Source: Eledone cirrhosa (taxonomy: Eukaryota). Taken from it: a DNA stretch of 64,000 nt. Under the pieces are notes generated by a model. It was not told the origin of the DNA and made no database searches. It worked only from the letters and a program-made list of their open reading frames with translations. Position 1 is the stretch's first letter. Each line of letters begins with the position of its first letter. Of this stretch, positions 4,712 to 26,499 are shown piece by piece. The stretch covers positions 11,594,001 through 11,658,000 of the forward strand of contig OZ024759.1 of NCBI GenBank assembly GCA_964016885.1, read 5' to 3'. The translations under genes and the position numbers were made by a program.

Positions 4712-5063
4712 ACATAATGGTGTTGGACCCTTAAAGCGTCCGTATGTAGTAGGCCGTATGAGCACTCGATGCCCTCATACAGCAGAGTATGATATCACAG
4801 AAAAAAGGGAATCAGTGTTGCGACGAAAGGAATTTATTGGACATATTACAATTGTTTCTCGGGCGACCAGCTCCAGGCACGATCGATGTGATGGTCAAAC
4901 CTGACTCTGAAATCGCGCGGTCCTCGGATACGTCTCGATTCTACAAAGCTGACTTTCCTATAGGAAAATCTGCCTCGAGCTGGTCGCCCGAGAAACAATT
5001 GTAATATGTCCTGTCCAATAAATTCCTTTCATCGCAACATTGATTCTCTTTTTTCTGTGATAT
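4712..5063 (-). mobile_element. HHR-bearing foldback element, family B (Penelope-like pLTR derivative)
   Basis: Inverted arms 4792-4879 / 4971-5063, unique tail on the left, flanked by (TG)n/(TA)n; homologous to 5545 and 25410. Confidence 0.7.
4840..4934 (-). ncRNA. Type I hammerhead ribozyme motif, family B (U4C core variant, 62-nt stem II region)
   Basis: Minus strand: gacgtat-CCGAGGA-ccgcgcga...tcgcccga-GAAAC-aatt-GTA-atatgtc. Stem I 7 bp with one GU pair; palindromic stem III loop. Confidence 0.65.
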
Positions 5064-5182
5064 ATATATATGTATATACATATATATATATCACACACAT
5101 ATATACTATGCACACACATATATACTATGCTCACATGTATTGAGTGCATAAATATGCCTATACGTATATATATATATGCATT

Positions 5183-5520
5183 GGAGGCACATGGCTTAGT
5201 GGTTAGAGCATTGGCCTTGCAATCGAAAGGTTGTGAGTTCAATTCTCGGACCAGGTGATGTGTTGTTTCCTTGAGCAAGACACTTTATTTCACATTGCTC
5301 CAGTTTACTCAGCTGTAGAAATGAGATGATAGGGACTGGGGTCCCTATCATTCCACTGCAAAGTGGTCGTGGAGGTGCCACGGCAAAAAAGCACCCAGCA
5401 CTCTCACTGTAAATGAGGTTGGTGTTAGGAAGGGCATCCAGCTGTAGAAATCAAGCCAGCATCAGTTCCCGTCCCACCCTTGCAAGCAGGGAAAAGCGGG
5501 TGTAAAATGATGATGATGAT
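5183..5520 (+). mobile_element. tRNA-derived SINE (family 2) with RTE-LINE-type 3' tail; near-identical copy at 61428-61763, 5' part at 7487-7603
   Basis: A box TGGCTTAGTGG, B box GAGTTCAATTC, tccttgagcaagacactt core, gttggtgttaggaagggcatccagc segment, ends ccttgcaagcagggaaaagc...(ATG)n. Confidence 0.85.
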
Positions 5521-5544
5521 ACATAGATACATACATATATATAT

Positions 5545-5815
5545 AATATGGAAAACGAAGTGATGAATCGGAACACAATTTATTACGTATTACAATTGTT
5601 TCTGCGACGAACAGCTCGAGGTGCGATCTGTTTGTGGATCGAACATGACTCTGGATTTGTAAATTCCTCAGATACGTCTAGTGATTTCAAAGCAAATTGT
5701 ATTCCGATGCATCACTGATCCTTCGTTTTCCATATCATTGTACTCTGCTCCACAGGTGCATAGAGTGCTCAACTGGCATACCGCATAGGGATGCATTCAA
5801 GCAACCTTAATACAA
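5545..5815 (+). mobile_element. HHR-bearing foldback element, family B
   Basis: Short arms about 5547-5581 / 5694-5735, tail on the right (tactctgctc...gagtgctcaactggcataccgc), flanked by TA runs. Confidence 0.65.
5585..5677 (-). ncRNA. Type I hammerhead ribozyme motif, family B (intact core)
   Basis: Minus strand: acgtat-CTGAGGA-(62 nt)-GAAAC-aatt-GTA-atacgt; perfect 6-bp stem I. Confidence 0.7.
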
Positions 5816-5976
5816 ATATATATATATAGGAAAAGAGTCGGGACCACATTAGCACTGCTGGCTTAGTTCAGATTTAGCTATTGAAAGGCCAGAGCTCAGC
5901 CATTGGGGTCATGACTTTTTTCCTATTACCACTCTACTACCCTAAGTTTCGTCCACCTGGTTTCTTACCACACTTT

Positions 5977-6010
<34 letters not shown>

Positions 6011-6223
6011 CGTTTCTGAATTTGTTTAGCAAGATTCTTTATCTGAAATCGTGTGTTGAAACCGATATTGTTATACTTTGGGAGGGTCATGTTGCCAATA
6101 AGAAACACACGCACCAGTTGCTTTCACTTCAATTTAATTTATTAAATATTTATAAATTTACAAATTTATAAATTTCTGGTTGGTTGGTTGGTTCCACAAC
6201 CAGATAGTTGTTTATATATATAT

Positions 6224-6269
6224 AGTCATAGTTCTTTCGTCACAACACTCTGTGACCTCTTCAGTGACT
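6224..6269 (-). ncRNA. Minimal type I hammerhead ribozyme motif, family E
   Basis: Minus strand: agtca-CTGAAGA-g-gtcaca-gagtgt-tgtgac-GAAA-g-aa-CTA-tgact; perfect stem I (5 bp) and stem II (6 bp). Confidence 0.75.
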
Positions 6270-6331
6270 GGGGATTTCGTTCTTCGTTTCTGTGTCTTTC
6301 CTTTCTTCTATCCTACGCCATATATATATAT

Positions 6332-6860
6332 GTAGATAAATCTACCAAGAGTTTACGGTAGTGTCCAATCCGTATGAAGAACTCAATGTATTCCGGATAT
6401 CATGGAAAGAAGAGATGTAATGAAAAATCACTTTCGTGAAAGATAAACGGTATACAGAGTCAAGATAAAATATTAAAAAAATAATGAATAAAACAATGAA
6501 AAAGTTCCTTATATTAAACAAAAAAGTTCATTATTTAACGATCGTTTCTGGGATATATATGTGTTAGAATTGGCATGTATATTCAACAGATCTATGTACA
6601 AAATTATACAAAATTATACAAACTATCAAGATTAAATATATTTCATTATTTCTGAAGACGGCGTATATGTGTGTTGGTATGTATATTTAATCTTGATAGT
6701 TTGTATAATTTTGTATAATTTTGTACATAGATCTGTTGAATATGCATGCCAATTCTAACACTATATATCCTAGAAACGATCGTTAAATAATGAACTTTTT
6801 TTGTTTAATATAAGGAACTGTTTCATTGTTTTATTCATTATTTTTTTAATATTTTATATA
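6332..6860 (-). mobile_element. HHR-bearing foldback element, family C
   Basis: About 175-bp inverted arms 6465-6640 / 6682-6857; left tail (gataaatctaccaa...ccgtatgaagaactcaatgta) shared with the 27463 copy. Confidence 0.72.
6642..6794 (+). ncRNA. Type I hammerhead ribozyme motif, family C, 114-nt stem II region
   Basis: ttcattattt-CTGAAGA-(114 nt)-GAAAC-gatc-GTT-aaataatgaa; perfect 10-bp stem I, palindromic GATC loop III. Confidence 0.7.
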
Positions 6861-6883
6861 TATGATATATATATATATATATA

Positions 6884-7190
6884 TCATCATCATCATCATC
6901 GTTTAACGTCCATGTTCCACGCTAGGCATGGGTTTGGACGGGAGTTTTCCCACTTGAGGCAAGAGTGGTTTGTCTTGCTCGCATAGGACTGTCTGGCAGG
7001 TTTTCTACGGCTGGATGCCCTTACCTAACACCAACCACGTTTACAGTGTCGACTGGGAGGTTTCTACCGTGTTACCTACACGGGCCACATTACAGCGTGG
7101 ACTGTGTGTTTTTATTGTCGTGTCATCCTACACGATCTCATTTGTTTCGGCCTGGATGTTGTGGCACCAACATAACTTTACATTGAAAGG
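6884..7190 (-). mobile_element. 5'-truncated SINE-2-related 3' fragment; others near 16760-17087 (+), 17100-17320 (-), 28460-28740 (-), 43050-43480 (-), 48300-48480, 62210-62335 (+), 63345-63413 (-)
   Basis: ggatgccc(tt)cctaacaccaacc segment and (CAT)n tail with gctagcatgg/gcaagcgtgg end. Confidence 0.65.
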
Positions 7191-7284
7191 GGGTGGTGTG
7201 GATGGGGTGGGGGGTAGTGGGACGGGGTGTATTCTTGTTAGAGGTGCCTACTGACTGTATATATATATATATATTTATATATAT

Positions 7285-7452
7285 CAGATATGGTGTGGTA
7301 AAACCCAGGTGGACCATAAATCACCAGAGTACTCAATACTTGGGGTAGTAGAGTGGGATAATATGAAAAAATTCAGGACCCCGATGGCTGTTAGAATCTA
7401 GCTGTTGAAACAGCTGGAGCTCAGCCGTCGGGGCCCTGGATCTTTTCTTTCT
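7285..7452 (-). mobile_element. Short TA-embedded element with imperfect inverted repeat, family F; other copies at 5828-5980 and 16134-16345
   Basis: Shared gagctcagcc(g/a)t(c/t)gggg arm and ccactctactaccc...ccacctgg...ttaccacac tail. Confidence 0.5.
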
Positions 7453-7486
<34 letters not shown>

Positions 7487-8690
7487 AGGCGCATGGCTGA
7501 GTGGTTACAGAATTGGATCATAATCATGAGGTTGTGAGTTCAATTCCCAGACTAGGCGATGCGTTATGTCCTTGAGCAAGACACTTTATTTCACATTGCT
7601 CCTTCTACCCGGAGTTGCGACCGACAGATGGTGCTATTGGTAAAACTGGAAAGACCAATAGAAACATTGTTTCCTCAGTATGATTTAACGAGCTCCACCC
7701 CACTCGTTAAGCAAATGAGGTCTGGGATCTTGTTAATCGACAGTCGATATATACATATATATATAAATATATATATACATATATATATACATAATATATA
7801 CATAATATATACATATATATATATAAAATACATATATAAAATAAATATATAAAATACATATATAAAAATATATAAATAAAAATATATATATATATATATA
7901 CATGAACAAATTATATATCTGATATATTTTTAATAATTATAATTCCATTATATTATGCTAAAACTTAATTAAAATCTAACATATTTCATTGCCAGGGTGT
8001 TTTTATCATGAGATGGCCATTATTTCATGTTCTGTCTGGAATTAATCAGAATCACAATTACACTTGTTACCATTCTATTACAGCATTGTTTCATTTCTAG
8101 ATGAAACAATGAGAAAATATAAAAATATAGAAATATAGAAAAATAATATAAAATGAAAATATAATAAAAAACAATATTAAAAAGATTGAAAAATCTAAAA
8201 TTCAATACGGAATCAAATCTTCCAACCTTTGATTGAACACTGTCAGTGGTTTCAGTATTTTTATGTTGTTGTATTTATTTCATTGTGATGGGGCTAAACA
8301 ATTGCACACAAACTCAACCTATTCCACGAGATATGTATTTGATGCACCACTTTATTGTAACTTGGCACAGCAGCATGTAGACATATATATACACATACAG
8401 TACACATATATAGACATATATATACACATCAGTACACTATATAGACATATATATACATATACAGTACACATATATAGACATATATATATATAGAGTACAC
8501 ATATATAGACCATATATATATACACATCAATACACATATACAGACATATATATATACACATCAGTACACATATATATACATATACAGTACACATATATAG
8601 ACATATATATATACACATCAATACACATATACAGACATATATATATACACATCAGTACACATATATATACATATACAGTACACATATATA

Positions 8691-8728
<38 letters not shown>

Positions 8729-10312
8729 CAGTACACATATATAGACATATATATACACACATCAGTACACATATACAGACAGACATATATATATATATAC
8801 ACACACCAGTACACACATACAGACATGTATACACATATACATATACATACACACTTACATATGCACATCAGTACACACATACATTATACACACACACACA
8901 ACAACAACAACAACACTAACTATTGTAATCAATAACTTTAAATGTGATTATCTTTAAAATTACAATGTTTTTCCTCTTTGTTTGCATCTGTCTCTCTCAG
9001 CCTCTCAGCTCTCACCAGCTAACCCCGCTCAGCCCTCACCCATCTGCATCCTGGCCTCTCTCAGCACCCGTCTCAGCGGCTCTCTCCCTGTCAGCGTCTC
9101 TCACCCTTTCTCTCTCTCACCCTCTCTCTCTCACCCTCACCCTCTCTCTCTCAACCCTCACCCTCCTCTCTCTCAGCCCTCACCCGCGCTCTCTCTCTCA
9201 CCCTCACGCACCCTCGTCTCTCACCCTCACCCTCTCTCTCTCACCCTAACCCTCTCACCCTCACCCTCTCTCTCTCTTCTCTCTCTCTCTCTCTCTCATC
9301 TTGTCTCTCTCACCCTCTCTCTCTCACCCTCACCCTCTCTCTCTCACCCTCTCTCTCTCTCACATTCTCTCTCTCTCTCTCTCACACTCTCTCTCACTCT
9401 CTCTCTCACTCTCTCTCTCTCACCCTCTCTCTCTCACCCTCTCTCTCTCACCCTCTCTCACCTCACCCTCTCTCACCTCACCTCTCTCTCTCACCCTCTC
9501 TCTCTCTCACCCTCTCTCTCTCTCACCCTCTCTCTCTCTCACCCTCTCTCTCTCTCACCCTCTCTCTCTCACCCTCTCTCTCTCACCCTCTCTCTCTCAC
9601 CCTCTCTCTCTCTCACCCTCTCTCTCTCACCCTCTCTCTCCCCCGTTCTCCTTTCTCCTCTCTCACTACCCCCATCCCCCCTCTTCCCTCCACATGTTGC
9701 TTCAATGTTGACTTTCAAACTTTTTCCATTATAATAATAATCACCATTTTATCATCATATTACTACTATTACTACTATTACTACTATTACTACTATTACT
9801 ACTATTATTGTTGGCGTATAATAACATTGTTGAAGATCAGATTTTTATTTTATTTTATTTTATTTTATATTTATTTTATTTTATTTTATTTTTATATTTA
9901 TTTTATTTTATTTTATTTTATTTTATTTTATTTTATTTTTTATTTTATTTTATTTTATTTTATTTTATTTTATTTTATTTTATTTTATTTTATTTTATTT
10001 TATTTTATTTTATTTTATTTTATTTTATTTTATTTTATTTTATTTTATTTTATTTTATTTTATTTTATTTTATATTTTAGTTTATTTTATTGTTTGTTTG
10101 TTTGTTTGTTTGTTTGTTCTGTAATAAGGAAGGAATTAGAGAAACTGCTTCACCTAAAGATTAAAATAATTTTTTTTTTTAATAAATTTGTTCAAATATA
10201 ATGAAAAGTATTGCTACGGTGAAATTTAGGTTATGAACAAATCACCAATTGTTTTTTCACAAATATGTATTATATATATATAATATATATGTATATATAT
10301 GTATATGGAATC

Positions 10313-10369
<57 letters not shown>

Positions 10370-10644
10370 ATATATATATGTGTGTGTGTATATATATATG
10401 TGTGTGTGTGTATATATATGTGTGTGTGTGTATATATATATGTGTGTGTGTGTATATATATGTGTGTGTGTGTATATATATATATGTGTGTGTGTATATA
10501 TATTATATGTGTATATCTCTATGTGTGTGTGTATATATATGTGTGTGTATATATATATATATTATATTTACATATGTGTGTATATATATATATATGTGTC
10601 TGTGTGTGTGTGTGTATATATATATATGTGTGTGTATATATATA

Positions 10645-10691
<47 letters not shown>

Positions 10692-10839
10692 ATATATATA
10701 TATGTGTATATCTCTGTGTGTGTGTGTATATATATGTGTGTGTATATATATATATATTATATTTACATATGTGTGTATATATATATATGTGTCTGTGTGT
10801 GTGTGTGTGTATATATATATATGTGTGTGTATATATATA

Positions 10840-10892
<53 letters not shown>

Positions 10893-10967
10893 CAGAAATT
10901 TAAATTTTGAAAAACCAAACAATGCGCTAGAAAGAACATTAAATTGCCAAGATAGCAATAGAATCTT

Positions 10968-11167
10968 NNNNNNNNNNNNNNNNNNNNNNNNNNNNNNNNN
11001 NNNNNNNNNNNNNNNNNNNNNNNNNNNNNNNNNNNNNNNNNNNNNNNNNNNNNNNNNNNNNNNNNNNNNNNNNNNNNNNNNNNNNNNNNNNNNNNNNNNN
11101 NNNNNNNNNNNNNNNNNNNNNNNNNNNNNNNNNNNNNNNNNNNNNNNNNNNNNNNNNNNNNNNNNNN
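10968..11167. other. Assembly gap (200 N)
   Basis: Run of N; the round length suggests a placeholder size. Confidence 0.98.
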
Positions 11168-11296
11168 CTCCCTGAGAAGTACGTTTAAGGTACATGTAAC
11201 GAAGGAATGCTCAGTCACTTGCATGTTAATTTCATAGGCAGGCTGTTCCAGTGGTTGAAAAACTGGGACATTTCTCTTTGGAACCAATAAAAGTCC

Positions 11297-11351
<55 letters not shown>

Positions 11352-12338
11352 ACATCCCCCCCATACACACATCCCCCCCATACACACATCCCCCCCATAC
11401 ACACATCCCCCCATACACACATTCCCCCCATACACACATTCCCCCACACACACACACATTCACACACTTCCTCCCACACGCTCACACACTCCCCCCACAC
11501 ACACACAAACTTCCACTCACACACACACTTCCCCACATACACTCACACACACACTTCCCCACATACACTCCCCCCACACACACACTTTCCAACACACACT
11601 CACACACACTTCCCCGCACACACTCACACACACAAACTTCCCCACACACACTCACACACACACTTTCCCACACACACTCACACACACTTCCCCGCACACA
11701 CTCACACACACTTCCCCACACACACTCACACACACATTCACACACACTCACACACACTTCCCCACACACACTCACACACACATTCACACACACATTCACA
11801 CACTCACACACACACATACACACATTCACATACACACATTCACATACACACATTCACACACACACATCCACACTTCCCCTCACACCCCTACACTTCCCCC
11901 ACAAATACACTCCTCTTCTCCTTCTTCTTTACTTCTTCTCCTTCTTCTCCTCTTCTTTACTGCTCCTTCTTCTCCTTTACTTCTTCTCCTCCTTCTTCTT
12001 CTTCTTCTTTTTCTTCTCCTCCTTCTTCTCCTCTTCTTTACTGCTCCTTCTCCTTTACTTCTTTTCCTTCTTCTTCTTCTTCTTCTTCTCCTCCTTCTCC
12101 TCCTCCTCCTTCTTCTTCTTCTTCTTTTTCTTCTCCTCCTTCTTCTCCTCTTCTTTACTGCTCCTTCTCCTTTACTTCTTTTCCTTCTTCTTCTCCTTCT
12201 TCTCCTCCTCCTCCTTCTTCTTCTTCTTCTTCTCCTCCTCCTCCTCCTTCTCCTCCTCCTTCTTCTTCTTCTTCTTCTTCTTCTTCTTCTTCTTCTTCTT
12301 CTTCTTCTCCTTCTTCTTCTTCTCCTTCTTCTTCTCCT

Positions 12339-12371
<33 letters not shown>

Positions 12372-13079
12372 CTTCTTCTCCTTTACTTCTTCTTCTTCAT
12401 CTTCTTCTTCTTCTTCTTTACTTCTTCTTCTCCTTCTTCTTCTTCCCCCCCCCCCTTCATTACTATATTCCATTGATTAAAATGTCAGTTTCCCGTATTG
12501 ATAGATTAATCTCCAAATCTATATTTTAGTTAGTATTGTTTTCTTTTGAAATAAATGTTATTATATTCTATATTTATGGTTGCCATTCTTTTGTCATTAG
12601 TGATATATGTTGGAGATACTTTCCAATTGTTGAAGGAGCATATAATTATACAACTTTTCTTTCTTGATTTTCTTGTTTAATTTCCTTCTTAAATTTTTGT
12701 GGTGAGGATTCTTTTAAATTTTACAAAATTAGAATTTCAAAATTATTATGAAAAAAAAAATGTCTGAATAATTTTAGGAAAAAAAAGATGAATTGTATTT
12801 AAGGACAACTTCCGTCTGTAAGGAAATAGAATTATTTTCAGAAAGTTTATTTTAAGTATTGTCAGGCTAAAACAGAGGTAAATCTAAAGATAGTTCCCTC
12901 TTACTTATTAAATGTATTATAAGACAGTCAGGCCCCTTACTGTTGCGTCATTTATGTTTCCTTTAAGTATGTATAGATTAGAGGTAGGGTTTCAATCTCC
13001 ATTATCTTAATCCTGTAGTTTTTACAATACTCTATATATACTATTATATTTTCATGGTAAAAATAATAATGATAATAAT

Positions 13080-14085
13080 AATAATAATGAAATTATTGTG
13101 TAAAGTGCTCAGGTGCACTACAACTCGTCAAAGGTGCATGTATAGTACATAGAATAATATACAAATGTCAGGGAAGTGAATAGTGTATGAGTCATGATAT
13201 ATATGTGTGTATGTGGATGGGGAACATTAGGTGTAGTGTTGGCGAATCTCGGGAAACATGGAGGTTTTAAAGGATGCAGTGTCTCGACAGCTAACAACTG
13301 ATGCAGGTAGTTTGTTCCATGAAGGTTTTAAAGGATGCAGTGTCTCGACAGCTAACAACTGATGCAGGTAGTTTGTTCCATGGAGGTTTTAAAGGATGCA
13401 GTGTCTCGACAGCTAACAACTGATGCAGGTAGTTTGTTTCATGAAGGTTTCAAAGGATGCAGTGTCTCGACAGCTAACAACTGATGCAGGTAGTTTGTTC
13501 CATAGAGGTTTTAAAGGATGCAGTGTCTCGACAGCTAACAACTGATGCTGATAGTTTGTTCCATGGAGGTTTTAAAGGATGTAGTGTCTCGACAGCTAAC
13601 AACTGATGCAGGTAGTTTGTTCCATGAAGGTTTTAAAGGATGCAGTGTCTCGACAGCTAACAACTGATGCAGGTAGTTTGTTTCATGAAGGTTTCAAAGG
13701 ATGCAGTGTCTCGACAGCTAACAACTGATGCAGGTAGTTTGTTCCATAGAGGTTTTAAAGGATGCAGTGTCTCGACAGCTAACAACTGATGCTGATAGTT
13801 TGTTCCATGGAGGTTTTAAAGGATGTAGTGTCTCGACAGCTAGCAACTGATGCAGGTAGTTTGTTCCATGGAGGTTTTAAAGGATGCAGTGTCTCGACAG
13901 CTAACAACTGATGCTGGTAGTTTGTTCCATGGAGGTTTTAAAGGATGTAGTGTCTCCACAGCTAACAACTGATGCAGGTAGTTTGTTCCATGCTTCAGCA
14001 ACTCTGAGCGTGAAAAAATGTTTCCGAAAGTCATGGGAACTGTGATGTTTTCTGACTTTGTGGGCATGTCCACGTGTGTTAGAAA
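13080..14085 (-). mobile_element. CR1/L2-like LINE 3' end with about 12 tandem 61-bp units (13260-13990)
   Basis: Minus strand WNKLPASVVSCRDTASFKTSM, the typical CR1/L2 C-terminal WNxLP motif; ATT-rich tail. Confidence 0.7.
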
Positions 14086-14479
14086 AAGCTTTATCTCACA
14101 TAATATCTCACTTATTATCGAATCTGAGATTTTGATATTATTTATTTTGAGAACAATACCTTTAACATCAGTAGAAGCGACCAGTTATGGCTGGTTTAAA
14201 CAGAAAGAGGTGAGAGAATTCTGGCCGGATACAGCCGGTTTAAATGCTAAAGGACTAATATTAAATGTGCCATATAGTATTGGGGTCTGTATTCTCCCTT
14301 TAGATCACTTTCTCACTTCCCCTGTCTCCCTCTGGAAGAAATTAGCTGGGTTCACACCTGATTTAAATGCCAAGAAACACCGTATTTCATGATGGTGCTC
14401 CTGTCGTAATGACAGGAGTTATGACTCCATCATCATCATCGTTTATGATAAGGTCTTTAAAAGTGATGGTTGTATATCT

Positions 14480-15195
14480 GTGGTAGGTGGTAGTGATGGT
14501 GCGGTGGTGTTAGTCAGGTGGTGGTGTTAGTGGTGTGGTGGTGGGGTGGTGTTAGTGGTCAGGTGGTGGTGGGTGGTGTTAGTGACGTGGTGGTCAGGTG
14601 GTGTTAGTGGCATGGTGAGGTGGTGATGGTGGGGTGGTGTTAGTGACGTGGTGGGGTGGTGTTAGTGACGTGGTGGTCAGGTGGTGTTAGTGGCATGGTC
14701 AGGTGGTGGTGGGGTGGTGTTAGTGACGTGGTGGTCAGGTGGTGTTAGTGGCATGGTAAGGTGGTGATGGTGGGGTGGTGTTAGTGACGTGGTGGGGTGG
14801 TGTTAGTGACGTGGTGGTCAGGTGGTGTTAGTGGCATGGTCAGGTGGTGGTGGTGGGGTGGTGTTAGTGACGTGGTGGTCAGGTGGTGTTAGTGGCATGG
14901 TCAGGTGGTGGTGGTGGGGTGGTGTTAGTGACGTGGTGGTCAGGTGGTGTTAGTGGCATGGTGAGGTGGTGATGGTGGGGTGGTGTTAGTGACGTGGTGG
15001 GGTGGTGTTAGTGACGTGGTGGTCAGGTGGTGTTAGTGGCATGGTCAGGTGGTGGTGGTGTTAGTGACGTGGTGATGGAATGGTGTTAGTGATGTGGTGG
15101 TCAGGTGCTGGTGGGGTGGTGTTAGCGACGTGGTGGTCAGGTGGTGCTAGTGACATGGTGAGGTGAGGTGGTGGGTGGTGTTAGTGACGTGGTCG
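14480..15195. repeat. GGT-rich compound minisatellite
   Basis: Recurrent gtggtgttagtgacgtggtggtcag / gttagtggcatggt units. Confidence 0.8.
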
Positions 15196-16089
15196 GAAGG
15201 CGGAGGGATGGAAGATTTGTAGGAGTGATATGATATCCAACGAGGAAACTCCCTTTTAGATGTATGAGAACATTTTTTTGAGTTTGTGGATAGCGTTGGT
15301 GTTGTGGGAGGGTGAGTTTGTGTTTATGACAGGGCATTTAAAAGTAATGGTTGTATATCTATGGTAGAGTTGTAAGAGTAGAGGTTTACTGGGAACAAGT
15401 GATATCAAACAAGGAAATTCTCTTTTGTATTTAATCTCTGAGATTTATATATATCTATTCAACTGTAAACATAACTGCTTTCCACATCATTTTCTATATT
15501 CTTTGAACATGATTTGAAAACATTAAGATATTAATGTAGTTATTCATAATATTTGTTTTCAAGACAAAAAAAAAACCGATAGATTAAGTTTCACAAAGAA
15601 TATCTGAAACGATATTAAAGGTTTTATTGTAAATCTGCTTAACTTGATTTTACTTGGACAATTGTTTGTTTCTTCCAGTGTCTTTTACATTAGTTAGAAT
15701 CATTCTTTATCAAAGTAATATTTTACAAAGCTAATTATTTCGCCTCAGTGTTTATATTCTCTTCCTGTTCCTACAAAACAAAGCTATCTTTTCATTAAGT
15801 CTCAGATATCTTTAGAGAATACAAACTAAGATACTGCTAGTATCTTCACTAATAATTCTCTCATATTAGGAATATTAGGAATTTATTAATATTTAATAAT
15901 AAATAATCGATCAATTTTCCATATGAACAACCTGTAGATCAACTTACCTATATATTAGGACTTTTAATTACTACTTAATTATTCATATTTATATTCATGA
16001 ATCTAAATATGAATCATATTACAGAGGATTGTTGATACATTCAATTGCTTAAGGAATTTAGATTCTTTTGAAATCGGAACTAAATGCTA

Positions 16090-16136
<47 letters not shown>

Positions 16137-16424
16137 AACAAGTAAGGCCTCGACGGCTGAGCTCAAGCCGTTTCGACGGCTAATTCTGGACTGAATGAAA
16201 ATTTATTCTGGTATTTAAATAGCCGAGCTTATCAAGGGGTAATTCCATATATGGTCAAAGAGATAATCACCAGGATTGGTCTCACACACACACACACACA
16301 TTCACACGTGCGTTATGCTCCACCTGGTTCCTTACCACATTTCCTTCGTTATATATATATGTAGGTTTATGTATATATATATGTATATATATATATGTAT
16401 GTATATATATATATGTATTTATAT

Positions 16425-16700
16425 TGAGAAATTAGGAATAAGAGGGATCCGATGCTGATAACTTGAGAGAAGATTACGTTGGTATGGTCATGTGATGCGC
16501 ATGAAAGACGACAGCTGTATAAAAAAGTGCAGTGCAATAAAAATTGATGGAAGTTACAGAGTAGTTAGACCCAGAAAAACCTGGGCCGACATGATAAATT
16601 CTGACCTTGCACACTTGCACCTCTCTAAGACAATGCCACTGGACCAAGATCAGTAATACGCCACACAGTAATACAGAAGACCCGCGTTCCCTATGTGCAA
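16425..16700 (+). mobile_element. Decayed RTE LINE 3' fragment
   Basis: EKLGIRGIRC...RRLRWYGHVMRM...; homologous to 44590-45135. Confidence 0.7.
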
Positions 16701-17395
16701 AAGTTAACCTACAGTCAGTAGGCCCCTCCAAACCAAACCCACATCCCAACTCCATCCTCCCTTTCCTGCCAACACCACCCCTTTCTCTATAAAGTTATGT
16801 TGGTACCACAACATCCAGTCCAGAATAAATGAGGTTGTGTAGGTGTCATGACAAAAAAAAAAAACACAGTCCACGCTGTAAAGTGGCCGTGTAAGTAACG
16901 TGGTAAAAAGTTTCCAGTCCACACTGTAAATGTGGTTGGTGTTAGGAAGGGCATCCAACTGTAGAAAACCTGTCAGGTAGTCCTATATGAGCGAGACACC
17001 GTCATCCGACAAATCTTGCCTCAAGTGGGATAACTCCTGTCTAATCCATGCTAGCGTGGAAGATAGATGTTAAACGATGATGATGATTTATTTATATATC
17101 ATCATCACCATTTTACGTCCATTCTGCCATGCTAGCATGGGTTAGACAGGTTGTCCTGTTGTTGGCAATGCCAGATCGGGTGACCATGTCTTGCTCATAC
17201 GGGAACTGATTTTGGCTTGATTTCTACAGCTGGATGCCCTTCCTAACACCAACAGTGAGTGCTGGGTGCTCTTTTACCATGGTGCCTACACAACTACTGT
17301 ACAGTGTGGGCTGAGTGCTTCTTTGTATATTCAATCAGTTGTACACACATACACATACGTACACACACACACATATATATAGAGAGAGAGAGATA

Positions 17396-17703
17396 GATTT
17401 ATCAAATAATGGTAGTTAAGACGGGATTAAATCACCATAATTGTTTATTGCATTATATATATTTCTGTTACATGGTTATTCATGTGACTTCATCAGGTGC
17501 TTACACAGTCATAGGTGCAGTTATGTAATCACTGTGAGAGAATGCAATAAACAATTATGGTGAATTAATCCCGTCTTAACTACCATTATTTGGTAAAGGA
17601 ATACTCTGTCACTCAATATCCCCTACCTGGGATAAACTACTGACGTGAAGTGCTTTGGGTCACTAGGGCCTGTTTATCATCAGGAAGTTACTACGTAACA
17701 ACT
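17396..17703 (+). mobile_element. HHR-bearing foldback element
   Basis: Arms about 17397-17454 / 17540-17597; right tail begins atactctg and ends in TATATA. Confidence 0.62.
17450..17500 (-). ncRNA. Type I hammerhead ribozyme motif (family A-like, AUA site)
   Basis: Minus strand: gcac-CTGATGA-a-gtcacatg-aataac-catgtaac-a-GAAA-t-atat-ATA-atgc; one mismatch each in stems I and II. Confidence 0.6.
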
Positions 17704-17721
17704 ATATATAGATATAGATAT

Positions 17722-17985
17722 ATCATCATCATCATCATCATCATCATACATCCGCTTTTCCCTACTTGCAAGGGTTGGACGGGTCTTATTCAGCAGAGCA
17801 TCTCTCCACTTGTCACGGTCCTTCGTCATCTCCACCGTGAGCTTCAGCGATCTGAGGTCTGCTCTCACCACCTCCGCTCATGTTTTTCATGGTCTTCCTC
17901 CACTGCGTCTTCCTTCTACTGGGACTTCCTGGCACTTCTTTAGCCAGTGGTCATCCTCAATGCACATCACATGTCCATACCATTA
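17722..17985 (-). mobile_element. RTE LINE 3' end
   Basis: VRADLRSLKLTVEMTKDRDKWRDALL plus (ATG)n tail; homologous to 44880-45135. Confidence 0.78.
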
Positions 17986-19430
17986 TCATCCTATATTATA
18001 GTGGATCTTCAATTGAAAGGTTAAAAGCCAACATGGCCCAGTATTTGCTGTATTTCTATGTCACTTTCTATTCAGATCATCATCATCATCAGATCATCAT
18101 GTAATGTCTGCTTTCCCTGCTAGCATGGGTCAGACATAGATTAATAAACAATATTAAAATAGTTTCTTAAATTAAGAAGTAGGACAATGCTTACATGAAT
18201 ATGTCTGTCTGTGTGGTGGGGGTGGGGGTTGCTGTGTGTGTGGTGGGGGTTGCTGTGTGTGTGGGTGTTGTGTGTGTGTGTGGTAGTGTGGAGGGTGTAG
18301 TGGTGTGGTGGGTTGCTGTGTGTGTGTGTGGAGGGTGTGGTGCGTTGCTGTGAGTGTGGCGGTGTGGTGGGTTGCTGTGTGTGTGTGTGGAGGGTGTGGT
18401 GGTGTGGTGGATTGCTGTGTGTGTGTGTGGTGGTGTGGTGGGTTGCTGTGTGTGTGGAGGGTGTGGTGGTGTGGTGGGTTGCTGTGTGTGTGGAGGGTGT
18501 GGTGGTGTGGTGGGTTGCTGTGTGTGTGGAGGGTGTGGTGGTGTGGTTGGTTGCTGTGTGTGTGGAGGGTGTGGTGGGTTGGTGTGGTGGTGTGGTGGGT
18601 TGCTGTGTGTGTGTGGTGGAGTGTAGAGTGGAATATATTGCTATTACGTTGGCTTTAGTATATATTTTCTATATATTTTGAAATCTATTAATTTATATTA
18701 TCTTTATTTTATTACTTTGTTTTTATTGCTGCCTCAGTTCTCTTTATCAGTTGCTTTATTTTTACTTAATTTGCCATACATTTTTCCAGTTTATGATTAA
18801 CACTTCCGATACCATACTTTCTATTGAAAGACACTGCCCAAGATTTTTCAATTAATTTTTCAAAAATAATCAAACATTTTGAGAGATATTTACTTATATA
18901 AATAATTTTTTTCATTATCAAGTTGTTGTTATTGTGACTTAACAAATATTCTTACATGAAATTATGATGGAAGGTTTTTCAGATAAATATAAACACTTTA
19001 ACCATTTCATCATTATATTTCTTATGAAAGATATTGGCTAAGATTTTCAATTAATTTTTATAATAATCAAATATTTGGAGTGATTTAGTAATATAACTCG
19101 TTATTATGCTAGTGTTTGGAACATAACTTAACAAAGGTTCTTACATAAAATGATGTTTATTTTGGAAAAATATATAAACAATTTAAAAGACAGTTTTGTA
19201 TGATAGAACCAGAGGCAGTTTCAACCAGTTTGGTATCACAAGGGTTAAAACATTTTTCAAAATATGAATTGTTGGTTTTATTTTGAAAAAAAATATTTTG
19301 CCATCTTAAAAAACAAATTTCTTGAAACAAGGTTATTTAGACAACATTGATTATTTTGAATTTGAAATGTAGTTGCCACAGTGTAAATGACAACAATAAT
19401 AGTTGCTCACTCTAAATAATTGTTGAGAAG

Positions 19431-20580
19431 TTAACCCTTTACCATTTACATTACTCTATATATACTATTGCATTTTCACAGTAAAGGCTTTACCTCACAT
19501 AATATATCACATAACATTTACATTACTCTATATATACTATTGTATTGTCACAGTAAAGGTTTTACCTCACGTAATATTTACATTACTCTATATTTACTAT
19601 TGCATTTTCACAGTAAAGGCTTTACCTCACACAATATCTCACATAACATTTACATTACTCTATATATACTATTGTATTTTCACAGTAAAGGCTTTACCTC
19701 ACATAATATCTCACATAACATTTACATTACTCTATATATACTATTGTATTGTCACAGTAAAGGCTTTACCTCACATAATATCTCACATAACATTTACATT
19801 ACTCTATATATACTATTATATTTTCACAGTAAAGGCTTTACCTCACATAATATCTCACATAACATTTACATTACTCTATATATACTATTGTATTGTCACA
19901 GTAAAGACTTTACCTCACAATATCTCACATAACATTTACATTACTCTATATATACTATTGTATTGTCACAGTAAAGACTTTACCTCACATAATATCTCAC
20001 ATAACATTTACATTACTCTATATATACTATTGTATTGTCACAGTAAAGACTTTACCTCACATAATATCTCACATAACATTTACATTACTCTATATATACT
20101 ATTGTATTGTCACAGTAAAGACTTTACCTCACATAATATCTCACATAACATTTACATTACTCTATATATACTATTGTATTTCCACAGTAAAGGCTTTACC
20201 TCACATAATATCTCACATAACATTTACATTACTCTATATATACTATTGTATTTTCACAGTAAAGGCTTTACCTCACATAATACCTCACATAACATTTACA
20301 TTACTCTATATATACTATTATATTTTCACAGTAAAGGCTTTACCTCACATAATATCTCACATAACATTTACATTACTCTATATATACTATTGTATTTTCA
20401 CAGTAAAGGCTTTACCTCACATAATATCTCACATAACATTTACATTACTCTATATATACTATTGTATTTTCACAGTAAAGGCTTTACCTCACATAATATC
20501 TCACATAACATTTACATTACTCTATATATACTATTGTATTTTCACAGTAAAGGCTTTACCTCACATAATATCTCATATAA
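19431..20580. repeat. 72-bp minisatellite (about 16 units) starting at a TTAACCCTTT MITE-like end
   Basis: 24-aa periodic ORF; the first 30 bp have an inverted match near 20815-20843. Confidence 0.85.
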
Positions 20581-20627
20581 TATTGAATCTATGAGATTTT
20601 GATGTTATTTATTTTGAAAACAACACC

Positions 20628-20935
20628 TTAACCCTTTAGTATTTAAACCGGCCATATCTGTCCAGAATTCTCTCACCTCTTTCTGTTCTGACCAGCCATA
20701 AATGGCCACTCATACTGATGTTAAGTTATTGTTCTCAAAATAAATAACATGAAATTCTTGTAGGTGAGATAATTATGTAAGATAAAGCTTTTACCATGAA
20801 AATATAATAGTAAATATAGAGTGATGTACATGGTAAAGGGTTATTGTAGGTATGTGTGGCCAATTGTGGCTGGTTTGAACAGAAATAGGTGAGAGAGGTT
20901 CTGACCGGATATGGCTGGTTTAAATGCTAAAAGTC
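20628..20935. mobile_element. MITE with about 75-bp TIRs beginning TTAACCCTTT (piggyBac-like TTAA ends); orphan end at 14180-14258
   Basis: ttaaccctttagtatttaaaccggccatatc...ctctcacctc vs ggtgagaga...gatatggctggtttaaatgctaaaag. Confidence 0.55.
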
Positions 20936-21455
20936 TTCTAGACTTTTGTCCATCTACAGGGATACATTACATAATTTTCTTATTTATAGCAATGAAGGGA
21001 AGTGATATTTGTTCCAGCTCTTTATATTCTTAGTTCAAATCTGACCAAAGCCATAAGGTTTGATAAAATACCAGTCATGCACTGGGGTTCAATATAACTG
21101 GCTTACCCCTGATATTGCTGGCCTTGTGCCTAAATTAGCAACCATTATTTATAGGGTGGTGGAATGGCGGTAAAATGGGTAGAGTGTTTAACGCTGAGGT
21201 TAGCTTAGCCTTTCATCCTTATGAGGTCGACAAAACAAAGTAGCAGTAATGCACTGGGGCCGATATAATCAACACGCCCCTTCATTCAAATTGCTGGCCT
21301 TGTGCCTGAATCAGAACCCATTATTTACAGTGATCAACTACTATTATAGTCATTTACATCAGGAGAACTACCATATTTGAAATGAAAATTTGTTTGACCA
21401 ATGTTTCTTAATCAAATTATCTGAATAAATGAATAAATAAATAATTAAATAATTA

Positions 21456-21494
21456 TCACTGATGATGTCACAGATGTATGACAAAAGAGCTCTG

Positions 21495-21495
<1 letters not shown>
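21456..21495 (+). ncRNA. Degenerate minimal hammerhead motif, family E (GAAA mutated to AAAA)
   Basis: tca-CTGATGA-t-gtca-cagatgta-tgac-AAAA-gagctc-tga, immediately upstream of (TA)n. Confidence 0.45.
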
Positions 21496-21533
<38 letters not shown>

Positions 21534-21541
<8 letters not shown>

Positions 21542-21770
21542 TAAAATAACAGATTAAAGTTTAAGCAAAGAATCGCTGCTTTCACCCTTAACGCGCTCCT
21601 CTGAAACTCTGAGTTTCAGAGGATCCCGTTAAGGGTGAAAGCAGCGATTCTTTGCTTAAACTTTAATCTGTTATTTTAATAAATATTTGCTCTACGGTTC
21701 TTATATATTTGATATATATTTATCCTTATCGAGCCCTCTTTGGATTTTAGTCTTCAAATTTATTACTATA
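21534..21770 (+). mobile_element. Near-perfect hairpin element, family D; a second non-foldback copy lies at 40500-40660 (-)
   Basis: Arms about 21534-21609 / 21611-21686 with a 1-nt centre; tail on the right; inserted in (TA)n. Confidence 0.7.
21611..21663 (+). ncRNA. Type I hammerhead-like motif, family D (U4A core variant, CUU site)
   Basis: gagttt-CAGAGGA-t-ccc-gttaa-ggg-t-GAAA-gca-gcgattctt-tgc-TT-aaactt. Confidence 0.55.
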
Positions 21771-22048
21771 TACATATATATATATATAATTGGGAAGAGA
21801 TATATTAGATATGTCTCATATGAAATAATACAGCCAATTTTCCACGCAATACTTTTAGTTAGCACCCCGAACACATAATTGGGAATATAATCACTTATTT
21901 CCTAATGTTTGTTGAGTGAGTTGGAATTTGGCCGGAGTATCGCTGAAAAGCTTTCTCCGATATTGTATTTATATATATAATATCTATATTTTTAATTATT
22001 GGTTAATCAATGATAAACATTGATTGCCAGCTAAATTACTTAAAGAAA

Positions 22049-24037
22049 TATAAAATATACTGAAGTGAAAACCAGCCCCAACTAAACAGCGAGTGTGTTT
22101 TACTATATATTTCTGGCAATATAAAATATACTGAAGCAAAAACTAGCCCCAACTAAACAGTGAATGTGTTTTACTATATATTTCTGGCAATATAAAATAT
22201 ACTGAAGCAAAAACCAGCCCCAACTAAACAGTGAGTGTGTTTTACTATATATTTCTGGCAATATAAAATATACTGAAGCAAAAACTAGCCCCAACTAAAC
22301 AGTGAGTGTGTTTTACTATATATTTCTGGCAATATAAAATATACTGAAGCAAAAACCAGCCCCAACTAAACAGTGAGTGTGTTTTACTATATATTTCTGG
22401 CAATATAAAATATACTGAAGCAAAAACTAGCCCCAACTAAACAGTGAGTGTGTTTTACTATATATTTCTGGCAATATAAAATATACTGAAGCAAAAACCA
22501 GCCCCAACTAAACAGTGAGTGTGTTTTACTATATATTTCTGGCAATATAAAATATACTGAAGCAAAAACTAGCCCCAACTAAACAGTGAGTGTGTTTTAC
22601 TATATATTTCTGGCAATATAAAATATACTGAAGCAAAAACCAGCCCCAACTAAACAGTGAGTGTGTTTTACTATATATTTCTGGCAATATAAAATATACT
22701 GAAGCAAAAACCAGCCCCAACTAAACAGTGAGTGTGTTTTACTATATATTTCTGGCAATATAAAATATACTGAAGCAAAAACCAGCCCCAACTAAACAGT
22801 GAGTGTGTTTTACTATATATTTCTGGCAATATAAAATATACTGAAGCAAAAACCAGCCCCAACTAAACAGTGAGTGTGTTTTACTATATATTTCTGGCAA
22901 TATAAAATATACTGAAGCAAAAACCAGCCCCAACTAAACAGTGAGTGTGTTTTACTATATATTTCTGGCAATATAAAATATACTGAAGCAAAAACTAGCC
23001 CCAACTAAACAGTGAGTGTGTTTTACTATATATTTCTGGCAATATAAAATATACTGAAGCAAAAACCAGCCCCAACTAAACAGTGAGTGTGTTTTACTAT
23101 ATATTTCTGGCAATATAAAATATACTGAAGCAAAAACCAGCCCCAACTAAACAGTGAGTGTGTTTTACTATATATTTCTGGCAATATAAAATATACTGAA
23201 GCAAAAACCAGCCCCAACTAAACAGTGAGTGTGTTTTACTATATATTTCTGGCAATATAAAATATACTGAAGCAAAAACCAGCCCCAACTAAACAGTGAG
23301 TGTGTTTTACTATATATTTCTGGCAATATAAAATATACTGAAGCAAAAACCAGCCCCAACTAAACAGTGAGTGTGTTTTACTATATATTTCTGGCAATAT
23401 AAAATATACTGAAGCAAAAACCAGCCCCAACTAAACAGTGAGTGTGTTTTACTATATATTTCTGGCAATATAAAATATACTGAAGCAAAAACCAGCCCCA
23501 ACTAAACAGTGAGTGTGTTTTACTATATATTTCTGGCAATATAAAATATACTGAAGCAAAAACCAGCCCCAACTAAACAGTGAGTGTGTTTTACTATATA
23601 TTTCTGGCAATATAAAATATACTGAAGCAAAAACCAGCCCCAACTAAACAGTGAGTGTGTTTTACTATATATTTCTGGCAATATAAAATATACTGAAGCA
23701 AAAACCAGCCCCAACTAAACAGTGAGTGTGTTTTACTATATATTTCTGGCAATATAAAATATACTGAAGCAAAAACCAGCCCCAACTAAACAGTGAGTGT
23801 GTTTTACTATATATTTCTGGCAATATAAAATATACTGAAGCAAAAACCAGCCCCAACTAAACAGTGAGTGTGTTTTACTATATATTTCTGGCAATATAAA
23901 ATATACTGAAGTGAAAACTAGCCCCAACTAAACAGTGAGTGTGTTTTACTATATATTTCTGGCAATATAAAATATACTGAAGCAAAAACCAGCCCCAACT
24001 AAACAGTGAGTGTGTTTTACTATATATTTCTGGCAAT
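22049..24037. repeat. 71-bp minisatellite, about 28 near-identical units, derived from family E foldback arm
   Basis: ORFs recur every 71 bp; unit gaagcaaaaacca...aacagtgagtgtgtt...ttctggcaatat matches 63001-63055. Confidence 0.92.
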
Positions 24038-24126
24038 ATTATAACAACATGACCATCACCAAATATAACATTTAAATAACTGATTAATTAATGAATTAAT
24101 TATTTCTGAAAATGCTTTACTTGTAG

Positions 24127-24406
24127 CTGGTATGTCTGAAGATAGTGACTATACAAGTGATGTCAATTTTCCCGTACAACATCAACATAACAGTTCGGCC
24201 CACCAGTTTCGAGGAGACCACGGATTCAGAATGCAGCACGAAGACAGTAAAGAGTACTTTGAATCATTTGACAGAGGCTATGAACGAGAACCTGACTACT
24301 ACGAAGATGGTGGAGTATATTACCCTGGTAGAAGTGATACTGACTCTGAGCCTCTCTACTATAATAGCAGACCCAATAGTAGACCACAATCTTTCATTAA
24401 TGATAG
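24127..24406 (+). CDS. unc-13: Internal coding exon (280 nt, phase 1 to phase 2) of a probable unc-13/Munc13 gene, region following the N-terminal C2A domain
   Basis: Acceptor ttacttgtAG|CT at 24126/7 and donor GATAG|GTAGGT at 24406/7. Complex open frame GMSEDSDYTSDVNFPVQHQHNSSAHQF...SFIND. The DSDYTSD..NSSAHQF motif resembles, from memory, the DSDYRSE...NASVHQY segment of vertebrate UNC13A and invertebrate Unc-13; needs BLAST confirmation. Confidence 0.72.
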
Positions 24407-24839
24407 GTAGGTAGGAAGGAGGAGGAGGCTGGGAGCATCAGCATCTTTAGTGTCATCTTCTTTATTCATTTTCTTCATCATCATCATCATCATCATCATT
24501 GTTGTTATCATTATCATCACTATCACCATCATCATCATCATCATCATTGTTGTCATTATCATCACTATCATCATCATCATCATCATCGTTATCATTATCA
24601 TCATCATCATCATCATCGTTATCATTATCATCACTATCATCATCATCATCGTTATCATTATCATCATCATCATCATCATCATTGTTATCATCACTATCAC
24701 CATCATCATCATCATCATCATTGTTGTCATTATCATCACTATCATCATCATCATCATCATCGTTATCATTATCATCATCATCATCATCATCATTGTTATC
24801 ATTATCATCACTATCATCATCATCATCATCGTTATCATT

Positions 24840-24871
<32 letters not shown>

Positions 24872-24890
24872 TGTTATCATTATCATCACT

Positions 24891-24922
<32 letters not shown>

Positions 24923-24938
24923 TGTTATCATTATCATT

Positions 24939-25122
24939 GGATTGGCAGTATCGGTAGAGGGTCGGACGCCATGTTTTGACGCATAGAGTTACGGCCCTTG
25001 CCATTCTGAGTTCAAATCCCGCCGAGGTTAACTTTGCCTTTCATCCTTACAGGGGTCGATGAAATAAAGTACCAGTAATGCACTGGGGTAATTGCTGGCC
25101 TTGTGCCAAAAGTAGAAACAAT
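24939..25122 (+). mobile_element. SINE family 1; further full or partial copies near 3470-3745, 21040-21320, 30765-30950, 32600-32760 (-), 34300-34520, 50004-50170, 51715-51812, 57720-58050, 58459-58650, 61078-61270 and 61871-62020
   Basis: Same head, core and ggccttgtgcc(a/t)aaagtagaaacaatt(att)n tail. Confidence 0.85.
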
Positions 25123-25337
25123 TGTCATCAATGTCACCATCATCATCATCATCAATGTCATCATCATCATCACCATTACTGTCATCATCATCATCACCAT
25201 CAATGTCACCATCATCATCATCATCAATGTCATCATCAACACTGTCATCATCACCATCATCATTACCATCACTGTTGTCATCTTTCTCATTTCTATGGCT
25301 GGATTCCCTTTCTGACATCGAACACCTTACATTGTGT

Positions 25338-25405
<68 letters not shown>

Positions 25406-25409
25406 TATA

Positions 25410-25742
25410 TGTGTGTCTGATGGAAGCTAAGATGCTTCCATAGGCGGTATGCTGGTTGAGCACTCTATGCTCTTACAGAGCAGAGTATGATGTAATAGAA
25501 AACGAAAAATCAGTGGTGCATCTGAACTCAATTAATTGTGTGTTACAATTGTTTCCCCGGCAGACAGCTCGAGACGCGATCATTGTGAGAGAATATGCTC
25601 CGAAATCATTAGACATGTCTGTCGAACCTGCAGGTCCAGAATCAGACAGATCCACACAATGATCCCGTCTCGAGCTGTCTGCCGGGGAAACAATTGTAAC
25701 ACACAATAAATTGAGTTCAGATGCATCACTGATTTTTCGTTT

Positions 25743-25749
<7 letters not shown>
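25410..25749 (-). mobile_element. HHR-bearing foldback element, family B
   Basis: Arms about 25491-25587 / 25653-25749, tail on the left, between two (TA)n tracts. Confidence 0.7.
25538..25619 (-). ncRNA. Degenerate hammerhead motif, family B (CTAATGA core)
   Basis: Minus strand: gacatgt-CTAATGA-tttcgg...ccggg-GAAAC-aatt-GTA-acacac. Confidence 0.5.
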
Positions 25750-25797
<48 letters not shown>

Positions 25798-26434: not shown

Positions 26435-26499
26435 TATTTTGTCTGATGAAAGCATACCATAATTTAACATGGTATCCTTGAAATATGTATAATAAAATA
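26435..26499 (+). ncRNA. Type I hammerhead ribozyme motif, family A
   Basis: tattttgt-CTGATGA-aagcataccat-aatttaac-atggtatcctt-GAAA-t-atgt-ATA-ataaaata. Confidence 0.75.

Follow-up and report, generated by a model that had tools for sequence, protein, structure and literature searches.

Three sites in a 64,000-nucleotide (nt) stretch of the Eledone cirrhosa genome (contig OZ024759.1; the whole stretch, called the window here, is animal DNA rich in microsatellites, and the genome has 3.0 Gb) raise the question of whether they encode a hammerhead ribozyme with a very long stem II and whether such a ribozyme would still cut RNA. The original prediction, made from the letters of the window, had proposed three diverged copies on the minus strand, with a stem I that changes in sequence but still pairs and a long stem II region that could be an extra domain. 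We conclude that the three sites are 5′-truncated fold-back ends of a Penelope-like retroelement (PLE) with an open reading frame (ORF) for a reverse transcriptase (RT) and a GIY-YIG endonuclease, each site belonging to a different high-copy subfamily. Taken together, the identity of the element and that of the hammerhead fold can be regarded as very well secured. Our preferred reading, to which we assign a probability of roughly 0.68, is that of a type I hammerhead fold that is enlarged by a covarying stem II of 57–63 nt and likely still cuts slowly, as a dimer or with the assistance of a protein. On balance, we expect such residual, assisted cleavage in most of the subfamilies.

The fold was examined with 17 subfamily profiles from fetched loci, several of which were based on few copies (B3p 3, B7c 3, B3q 4, B8 4), while the B10 profile was one real copy with position 15.2 scored from other copies. 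All 17 profiles parsed into stem I, the core, a 9-position stem IIa, a short bulge, 3 base pairs, an AGUC/YGAG internal loop, about 4 base pairs, and a distal hairpin, with a stem II of 57–63 nt in 13 profiles and of 60 nt in B9. The three-way junction is open at stem I, and stems I and II are paired, which corresponds to the type I topology. Among the cells of these profiles, 313 of 374 were paired, with two-sided change at 16 of 22 positions, and when the pairs were defined on B1–B3, they were also found in seven distant subfamilies, where 122 of the 140 cells paired (re-paired-column null 88, 0/5,000). With 30 real copies, RNAalifold recovered the stem II hairpin unaided and found two-sided change in 8 of 17 pairs. 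When stems I and III were added to give the named structure, 91.8% of 748 cells paired, in comparison to 28–38% in slid controls, and 79 cells had two-sided change versus 27 in shuffles (0/500). As the structure was originally drawn from the tested families, there is some circularity in these tests. Stem I, which showed two-sided change in five of its six pairs, is predicted to extend beyond an AAUAAA-rich internal loop; AU-rich flanks belong to the published consensus of PLE hammerheads (PMC4209133). The strong covariation between subfamilies agrees with the originally proposed compensatory stem I and with a type I hammerhead-type family that has a long stem II with a conserved extra segment.

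Two further elements of the fold stand out. The AGUC/YGAG internal loop is near-invariant, as seven of its eight letters (AGUC/GAG plus flank, all except Y) change at most once on the tree, and the best reading is that the extra stem II domain is still under selection. Loop III switches between the palindromes AAUU, AUAU, and GCGC, the latter in a distant clade, and an 8-bp self-duplex of loop III (–5.8 to –13.3 kcal/mol) was predicted in 11 of 12 profiles. GAAA, the A15.1–U16.1 pair, and the NUH triplet were present in all 17 profiles and in all three window copies.

The first window motif (subfamily B2) occupies 4840–4934 on the minus strand, with stem I formed by GACGTAT (4934–4928) and ATATGTC (4846–4840), the core CCGAGGA (4927–4921; U4C), a stem II of 62 nt (4920–4859) with C.A at 10.1–11.1, and GAAAC-AATT-GTA (4858–4847), which places the predicted cut after 4847. 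AATAAA lies at 4838–4833, and 150 of 157 letters equal the subfamily consensus. The corresponding fold-back PLE end (locus L031, 4712–5060), with (CA)n and (TA)n on either side, consists of a long minus-strand arm (about 4712–4961) that holds the full motif and the tail of the 5′ untranslated region (UTR) and a short inverted plus-strand arm (about 4971–5058) that holds only the 3′ half of the motif. The second motif (B1) is found at 5585–5677, again on the minus strand, with stem I ACGTAT (5677–5672)/ATACGT (5590–5585), the core CTGAGGA (5671–5665), a stem II of 62 nt (5664–5603) with A.A at 10.1–11.1, and GTA at 5593–5591, with the predicted cut after 5591. Its fold-back end (L001, 5545–5816) has (TA)n flanks on both sides, a short minus-strand arm (about 5545–5698) with the full motif, and a long plus-strand arm (about 5695–5816) that begins 9 nt past the predicted cut and continues through the tail. 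Private changes weaken stem II of this copy (–8.2 versus –21.0 kcal/mol for its subfamily consensus), which makes it a poor substrate for a cleavage assay. Both copies are confirmed as the original prediction described them, and the GAGCTG segment common to the copies is real.

The third motif (B3) had been sought on the wrong strand. The complete motif lies on the plus strand at 25613–25704, with stem I ACATGT (25613–25618)/ACACAC (25699–25704) of the GTGT/ACAC type, the core CTGTCGA (25619–25625; CCGTCGA with A6U in the subfamily), a stem II of 61 nt (25626–25686), GAAAC from 25687, GTA at 25696–25698 with the predicted cut after 25698, and AATAAA at 25705–25710; 151 of 157 letters equal the subfamily consensus. 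The fold-back end (L061, 25411–25752), with (TA)n flanks on both sides, has a long minus-strand arm (about 25411–25587) with only the 3′ half and the tail, and a short plus-strand arm (about 25585–25752) with the full motif. The minus-strand copy that had been proposed at 25538–25612 is not a motif, as it consists of the inverted arm without the 5′ core and a non-homologous CTAATGA. The lower stem II length of 50 nt, which came from it, was an artefact because this arm, which is truncated and has GAAAC at 25555 on the minus strand, had been joined to CTAATGA, the antisense of sequence upstream of stem I.

As these fold-back ends resemble inverted-repeat transposons, we also considered that the sites could be miniature inverted-repeat transposable elements (MITEs), i.e., non-autonomous DNA transposons, with the hammerhead letters being part of the terminal inverted repeats. 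The long near-perfect inverted arms at 4792–5063 and 25490–25752 and the TA-repeat flanks would fit such elements; these arms are 94–98% complementary, the fold-backs of all three sites have arms of up to about 98 nt, and GAAACAATTGTA was found in both arms in two of the three window elements. However, the inner arm ends differ from copy to copy, the outer ends are unequal, many copies are one-armed, and this sequence also stands in direct repeats on both sides of RT-endonuclease ORFs. The linked ORFs and variable arm lengths rule out a MITE identity, to which we give practically no credence. Inverted 5′ truncation in combination with a one-sided tail is a known PLE pattern (PMC8557442, PMC11167929), and the fold-backs are therefore PLE copies and not MITEs. 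Partial tandem or inverted 5′-truncated copies, a one-sided tail, and microsatellite targets, all hallmarks of PLEs, were observed.

Frames for RT, a Cys linker, and GIY-YIG were found 1.5–3.3 kb upstream of sense-strand motifs, and inverted copies lie at 5′ truncations. The PLE-type RT and C-terminal GIY-YIG motifs were recognised by direct reading of the frames, which form a single ORF flanked by motif-bearing pseudo-long terminal repeats (pLTRs). The element unit is linear, the motif is sense to the ORF, and the upstream pLTR copy lies about 180 nt before the ORF ATG; both pLTRs carry the motif in seven loci (L158, L383, L387, L390, L392–L394). On the basis of its motifs, the element may be of the Neptune type. 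Look-alikes in the Atlas pointed in the same direction (GIY-YIG 0.95, DUF8422/RVT_1 0.90–0.93) and are used as leads only. Pfam gave no match for two protein fragments (P0001, P0002), and a protein search with the endonuclease part gave none at E ≤ 1e-10 within the length limits of that search. No RT ORF was found upstream of B4, B5, and B7 copies in 17 fetched regions, and one B7c-linked RT was found later. A coding frame through the motif itself was rejected, as it is open in some B1 copies but contains stops in B2.

Some further observations concern the element. Between the parts for the RT thumb and for the Cys linker, its ORF holds long and variable insertions of low complexity, among them microsatellite runs of the ACA type (L150, 1907–3787; also L091, L092, and L154). 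A related PLE family with 57% RT identity (L379, L380) has almost identical terminal repeats and open frames that reach about 896 codons; the long-stem-II motif was not detected in these two loci. In L008, L026, L010, and L019, the fold-back junctions jump between the stem I strands via ACGT microhomology, which deletes or inverts the whole hammerhead domain. Similar inserts, which begin with TCTATAT...AAAAC and resemble a Helitron 5′ end, interrupt three copies 1–3 nt past the predicted cut triplet, in L123 (minus, 3271), L156 (plus, 5586), and L171 (minus, 1501); a target preference is possible.

The family is abundant in the genome. The 3′ half GAGCT-N10-GAAACAWWTGTA had 8,392 exact matches versus one for the control, many of them truncated arms without a core. 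The slightly tighter pattern of the AATT-loop form, GAGCTR-N9-GAAACAATTGTA, had 5,211 exact matches (one for the reversed control), the ATAT-loop form 1,926, and CTGANGA in register 728 exact copies (none for the control). These counts leave out the distant clade that has a GCGC loop and a GUC triplet, which was reached via the RT. First-look candidates numbered 2,793, 2,744, and 2,383 for the subfamilies of the three window copies, and 40 of each were scored. In metagenome and viral contigs, the core was in register in none of 141 pattern matches, among the metagenome matches listed. Seven ATAT-loop matches with the same arm, spaced roughly 58–105 kb apart in G000:C1:143349203-143796723, suggest a large tandem segmental array. 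Rfam hammerhead models had no match in the 64-kb window at E ≤ 1, and no hammerhead was among the 150 matches listed of 222 for four genomic loci; this kind of hammerhead was thus missed by Rfam in the window, and descriptors with short stems would likely miss it as well.

The next question is what happened to the catalytic core. C3, G5, G8, and A9 did not change by parsimony on a tree of length 2.76, while U4 changed four times, A6 twice, and N7 seven times; unchanged columns amounted to four of four in the core versus 7 of 44 in the helices (Fisher p = 0.0017). The original prediction had staked the family on CUGANGA in the consensus of many copies. This core is kept in the subfamily of the 5585 copy (CTGAGGAA in 34/45 copies), but not in those of the 4840 copy (CCGAGGA, 26/42) and the 25538 site (CCGTCGA, 25/40). 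Among the subfamilies, B1, B1p_T, B2p, B4, B5, and B7 have CUGANGA, while B2, B3, B3p, B3q, B6, B8, B9, B10, and B1p_C have the cores CCGAGGA, CCGTCGA, CCGAAGA, CCGACGA, or the 8-nt CTGAAGGA/CTGAAAGA, and are classed as variant descendants. B4 and B5 were first found via a core pattern and then resampled without it. B5 is fully canonical, with CUGAUGA and G10.1–C11.1, and this pair is otherwise present only in B9, B10, and part of B4.

The order of these changes can be read from the RNA tree and the RT tree, which agree with each other, with the GCGC clade splitting from a ladder of B7, B2, B1, B3, B3q, B3p, B6, and B8. The RT tree is a quick tree of 46 rows including two outgroup rows; B4 and B5 are absent because no ORFs were found upstream of their copies. 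In pattern-sampled copies, the median divergence from the consensus was 0.131 for B5 (n = 11), 0.096 for B4 (20), 0.079 for B7a (16), 0.060 for B2 (7), 0.054 for B1 (18), 0.036 for B3 (6), and 0.036 for B6 (8). By this measure, which rests on small samples, B5 is the oldest subfamily and B3 and B6 are the youngest. These ladder-shaped, congruent trees and the falling divergence could reflect progressive decay, with a ribozyme that was active in the old B5, B4, and B7 and is dead in younger subfamilies, including B2 and B3 of the window, where the scaffold alone would have persisted, without catalysis, as a structure recognised by the protein of the element. Along the ladder, 10.1–11.1 indeed changes from G–C to G.U/U.U and to mismatches, followed by U4C, A6U, and an insertion. 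The absence of insertions that end at the predicted cut, the dispensability of cleavage for insertion in vitro (PMC11167929), and the spread of Naiad PLEs without canonical hammerheads (PMC8557442) point in the same direction. However, C3, G5, G8, and A9 are fixed in the young branches as well, the B6 and B8 consensus is back to U4, and the young B9 clade combines CCGUCGA with an intact G10.1–C11.1, a stronger palindrome, and GUC; the age samples are also small. We therefore consider a general decay to be unlikely, although B8, with its broken palindrome and pairs, may already be a scaffold-only case with lost catalysis.

The core CCGUCGA deserves separate consideration, as it occurs in both B3 and B9. 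These subfamilies are far apart (RT about 60% versus 85% identical to the query), and a single clade was rejected (p-AU 0.0002). According to the RNA and RT trees, CCGUCGA arose twice independently. It is conceivable that CCGUCGA is a fully functional alternative core, favoured by selection on two occasions owing to a junction reshaped by the long stem II. The seven letters are identical in the two distant subfamilies, and each has CCGACGA relatives (B3q for B3, B10 for B9), with CUGANGA relatives further out (L370, CTGACGA). Yet there are only two origins, and as one change from CCGACGA suffices, tolerance plus chance can explain the match; T-to-C changes may stem from RNA editing of fold-back transcripts, and A6 changes reduced the activity of other hammerheads (PMC3088659). 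A fully functional alternative core thus appears very doubtful to us. In another model, which we hold to be improbable, the added 60-nt domain would dock on the protein of the retroelement or on stem I and thereby free the core, so that the twice-evolved CCGUCGA would cut RNA. If this is true, one animal genome would contain a ribozyme gated by a protein in the form of a natural allelic series.

Several observations weigh against a fold that still cuts, and some limit the evidence for it. Of 186 mapped arms (B1–B3), none had a 3′ end lying 3 nt or less from the predicted cut, and no more than four started there, mostly in the query-biased B1 sample, with stem I microhomology explaining some of them. 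The core deviates in several respects: B6 and B8 carry the 8-nt core, B3 and B9 carry A6U, and G10.1–C11.1, termed highly conserved in PLE hammerheads (PMC4209133), is replaced in all three window subfamilies by A.A (B1), C.A (B2), and A.C or A.G (B3). A natural A6C and an insertion after A6 have low activity in other hammerheads (PMC3088659). B8 was amplified although its loop III is not palindromic (–2.9 kcal/mol) and its stems contain broken pairs, and about 1,250 of the 8,392 matches (by subtraction) have a non-palindromic loop, mostly ATTT among the first 100 listed. Regarding the evidence itself, the core parsing pattern required C.G..GA, the invariance of the 3′ core (GAAAC..GTH) does not count because this part was the search anchor, and the number of pairs with two-sided change in the named structure was raised only modestly (13/25 versus 9.7 in shuffles, 20/500).

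The ends of 173 of the 186 arms lie at +45 to +59 or at +120 to +140 from the predicted cut, the latter end being blurred by a microsatellite at the end of the reference. As insertions span the predicted cut and none ends there, uncut or religated RNA is the usual template, and we infer that the RNA is seldom cut, given that the copied RNA as a rule extends across the site. In a lizard PLE, uncut RNA is likewise the main template, and the hammerhead is assisted by protein and dispensable for insertion in vitro (PMC11167929). The core changes affect positions at which natural variants retain some, though lower, activity, as would be expected of an attenuated ribozyme; U4C, for example, lowers activity in vitro but is sufficient in vivo in a viroid (PMC3088659).

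The mechanism is proposed by analogy with PLE hammerheads that cut weakly and as dimers (PMC4209133; review PMC6765202). Two hammerheads of a tandem transcript would pair via their loop III palindromes and thereby complete helix III. The dimer would cut after GUA or GUC and release unit-length RNA, which might circularise. The long arm, in which the AGUC/YGAG loop hardly varies, is most simply read as a docking surface, either for stem I in a tertiary contact or for the RT-endonuclease protein, and such docking might allow U4, A6, N7, and the 10.1–11.1 pair to drift.

Two other features of the window should be mentioned. A separate, shorter type I hammerhead-like family is present at 26435–26499 and 40365–40425 (plus strand) and at 38751–38813, 38483–38549, and 27976–28037 (minus strand). 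It reads TATTTTAT-CTGATGA, a stem II region of 26–32 nt, and GAAA-TATRTA-TA-ATAAAATA, has a canonical core and a TA-palindromic loop III, and is probably the 'family A' of the original prediction. Weak tRNA-like matches under the Rfam threshold at 5192–5249 and 61437–61494 (both plus strand) are likely the heads of a tRNA-derived short interspersed element.

The family bears on the question of why PLEs carry hammerheads: these are poor cutters in vitro, and in the only system that was reconstituted, insertion did not require cleavage (PMC11167929). Its roughly 17 subfamilies form a dated series in which the trees of RNA and protein agree. As its scaffold keeps compensating while single core positions change, it can be asked directly whether the cut or the fold is selected, and the long stem II with its near-invariant internal loop is a candidate for the site at which the protein of the element assists the ribozyme. 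Literature searches on a lengthened stem II, on hammerheads of octopuses or other cephalopods, and on A6U listed no paper that describes the family or its CCGUCGA core, and for A6U in hammerheads they listed only a paper on twister; the PLE hammerhead variants of Lunse et al. (2017) may be related.

Hammerheads in PLE repeats are known, also as a likely source of retrozymes (preprint 10.64898/2026.07.22.740005). The closest relatives are the type I (minimal) hammerheads of Cervera and de la Pena (2014; PMC4209133), which have the same topology in both pLTRs of an RT and GIY-YIG element, a short palindromic loop III implying dimers, an AU-rich 3′ flank, opposite-strand pairs 100–700 bp apart, and many consensus families with compensatory changes. 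In the consulted rows of their 56-motif alignment, helix II plus loop has about 23 nt at most, so that the 57–63 nt with internal loops found here is more than twice the longest in these rows. The cores in these rows are CUGA or UUGA, with no CCGA or CCGU among them, and G10.1–C11.1 of those hammerheads is kept here only in the four subfamilies given above, among which B5, unlike them, has no unpaired base between A9 and 10.1. Natural variants with reduced activity also show single changes of the kind seen here, namely U4C, an A6 change, an extra nucleotide after A6, and a mismatch of the U10.1.U11.1 type (Perreault et al., 2011; PMC3088659), but U4C together with A6U, fixed in high-copy families and arisen twice, is not among the variants in the consulted part of that survey. 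The green anole PAc Poseidon (PMC11167929) shares two reverse-transcription start points that define the tail, AT-rich targets, a hammerhead near the ORF start, and uncut RNA as the main template. The end spacing is about 80 nt here and 30–40 bp there, and the present element differs in that its motif precedes the ATG by about 180 nt, its endonuclease is preceded by a Cys linker, and its stem II is much longer. With endonuclease-containing PLEs of the Neptune/Nematis type (PMC8557442), it has in common the RT, a Cys-rich linker of the kind found in both Neptune and Nematis, a C-terminal GIY-YIG domain with CCHH-type residues, partial tandem and inverted 5′-truncated copies, and microsatellite targets, whereas the Eledone element is set apart by a microsatellite-rich 3′ UTR of 1.5–3 kb and by the long insertions of low complexity in its thumb region.

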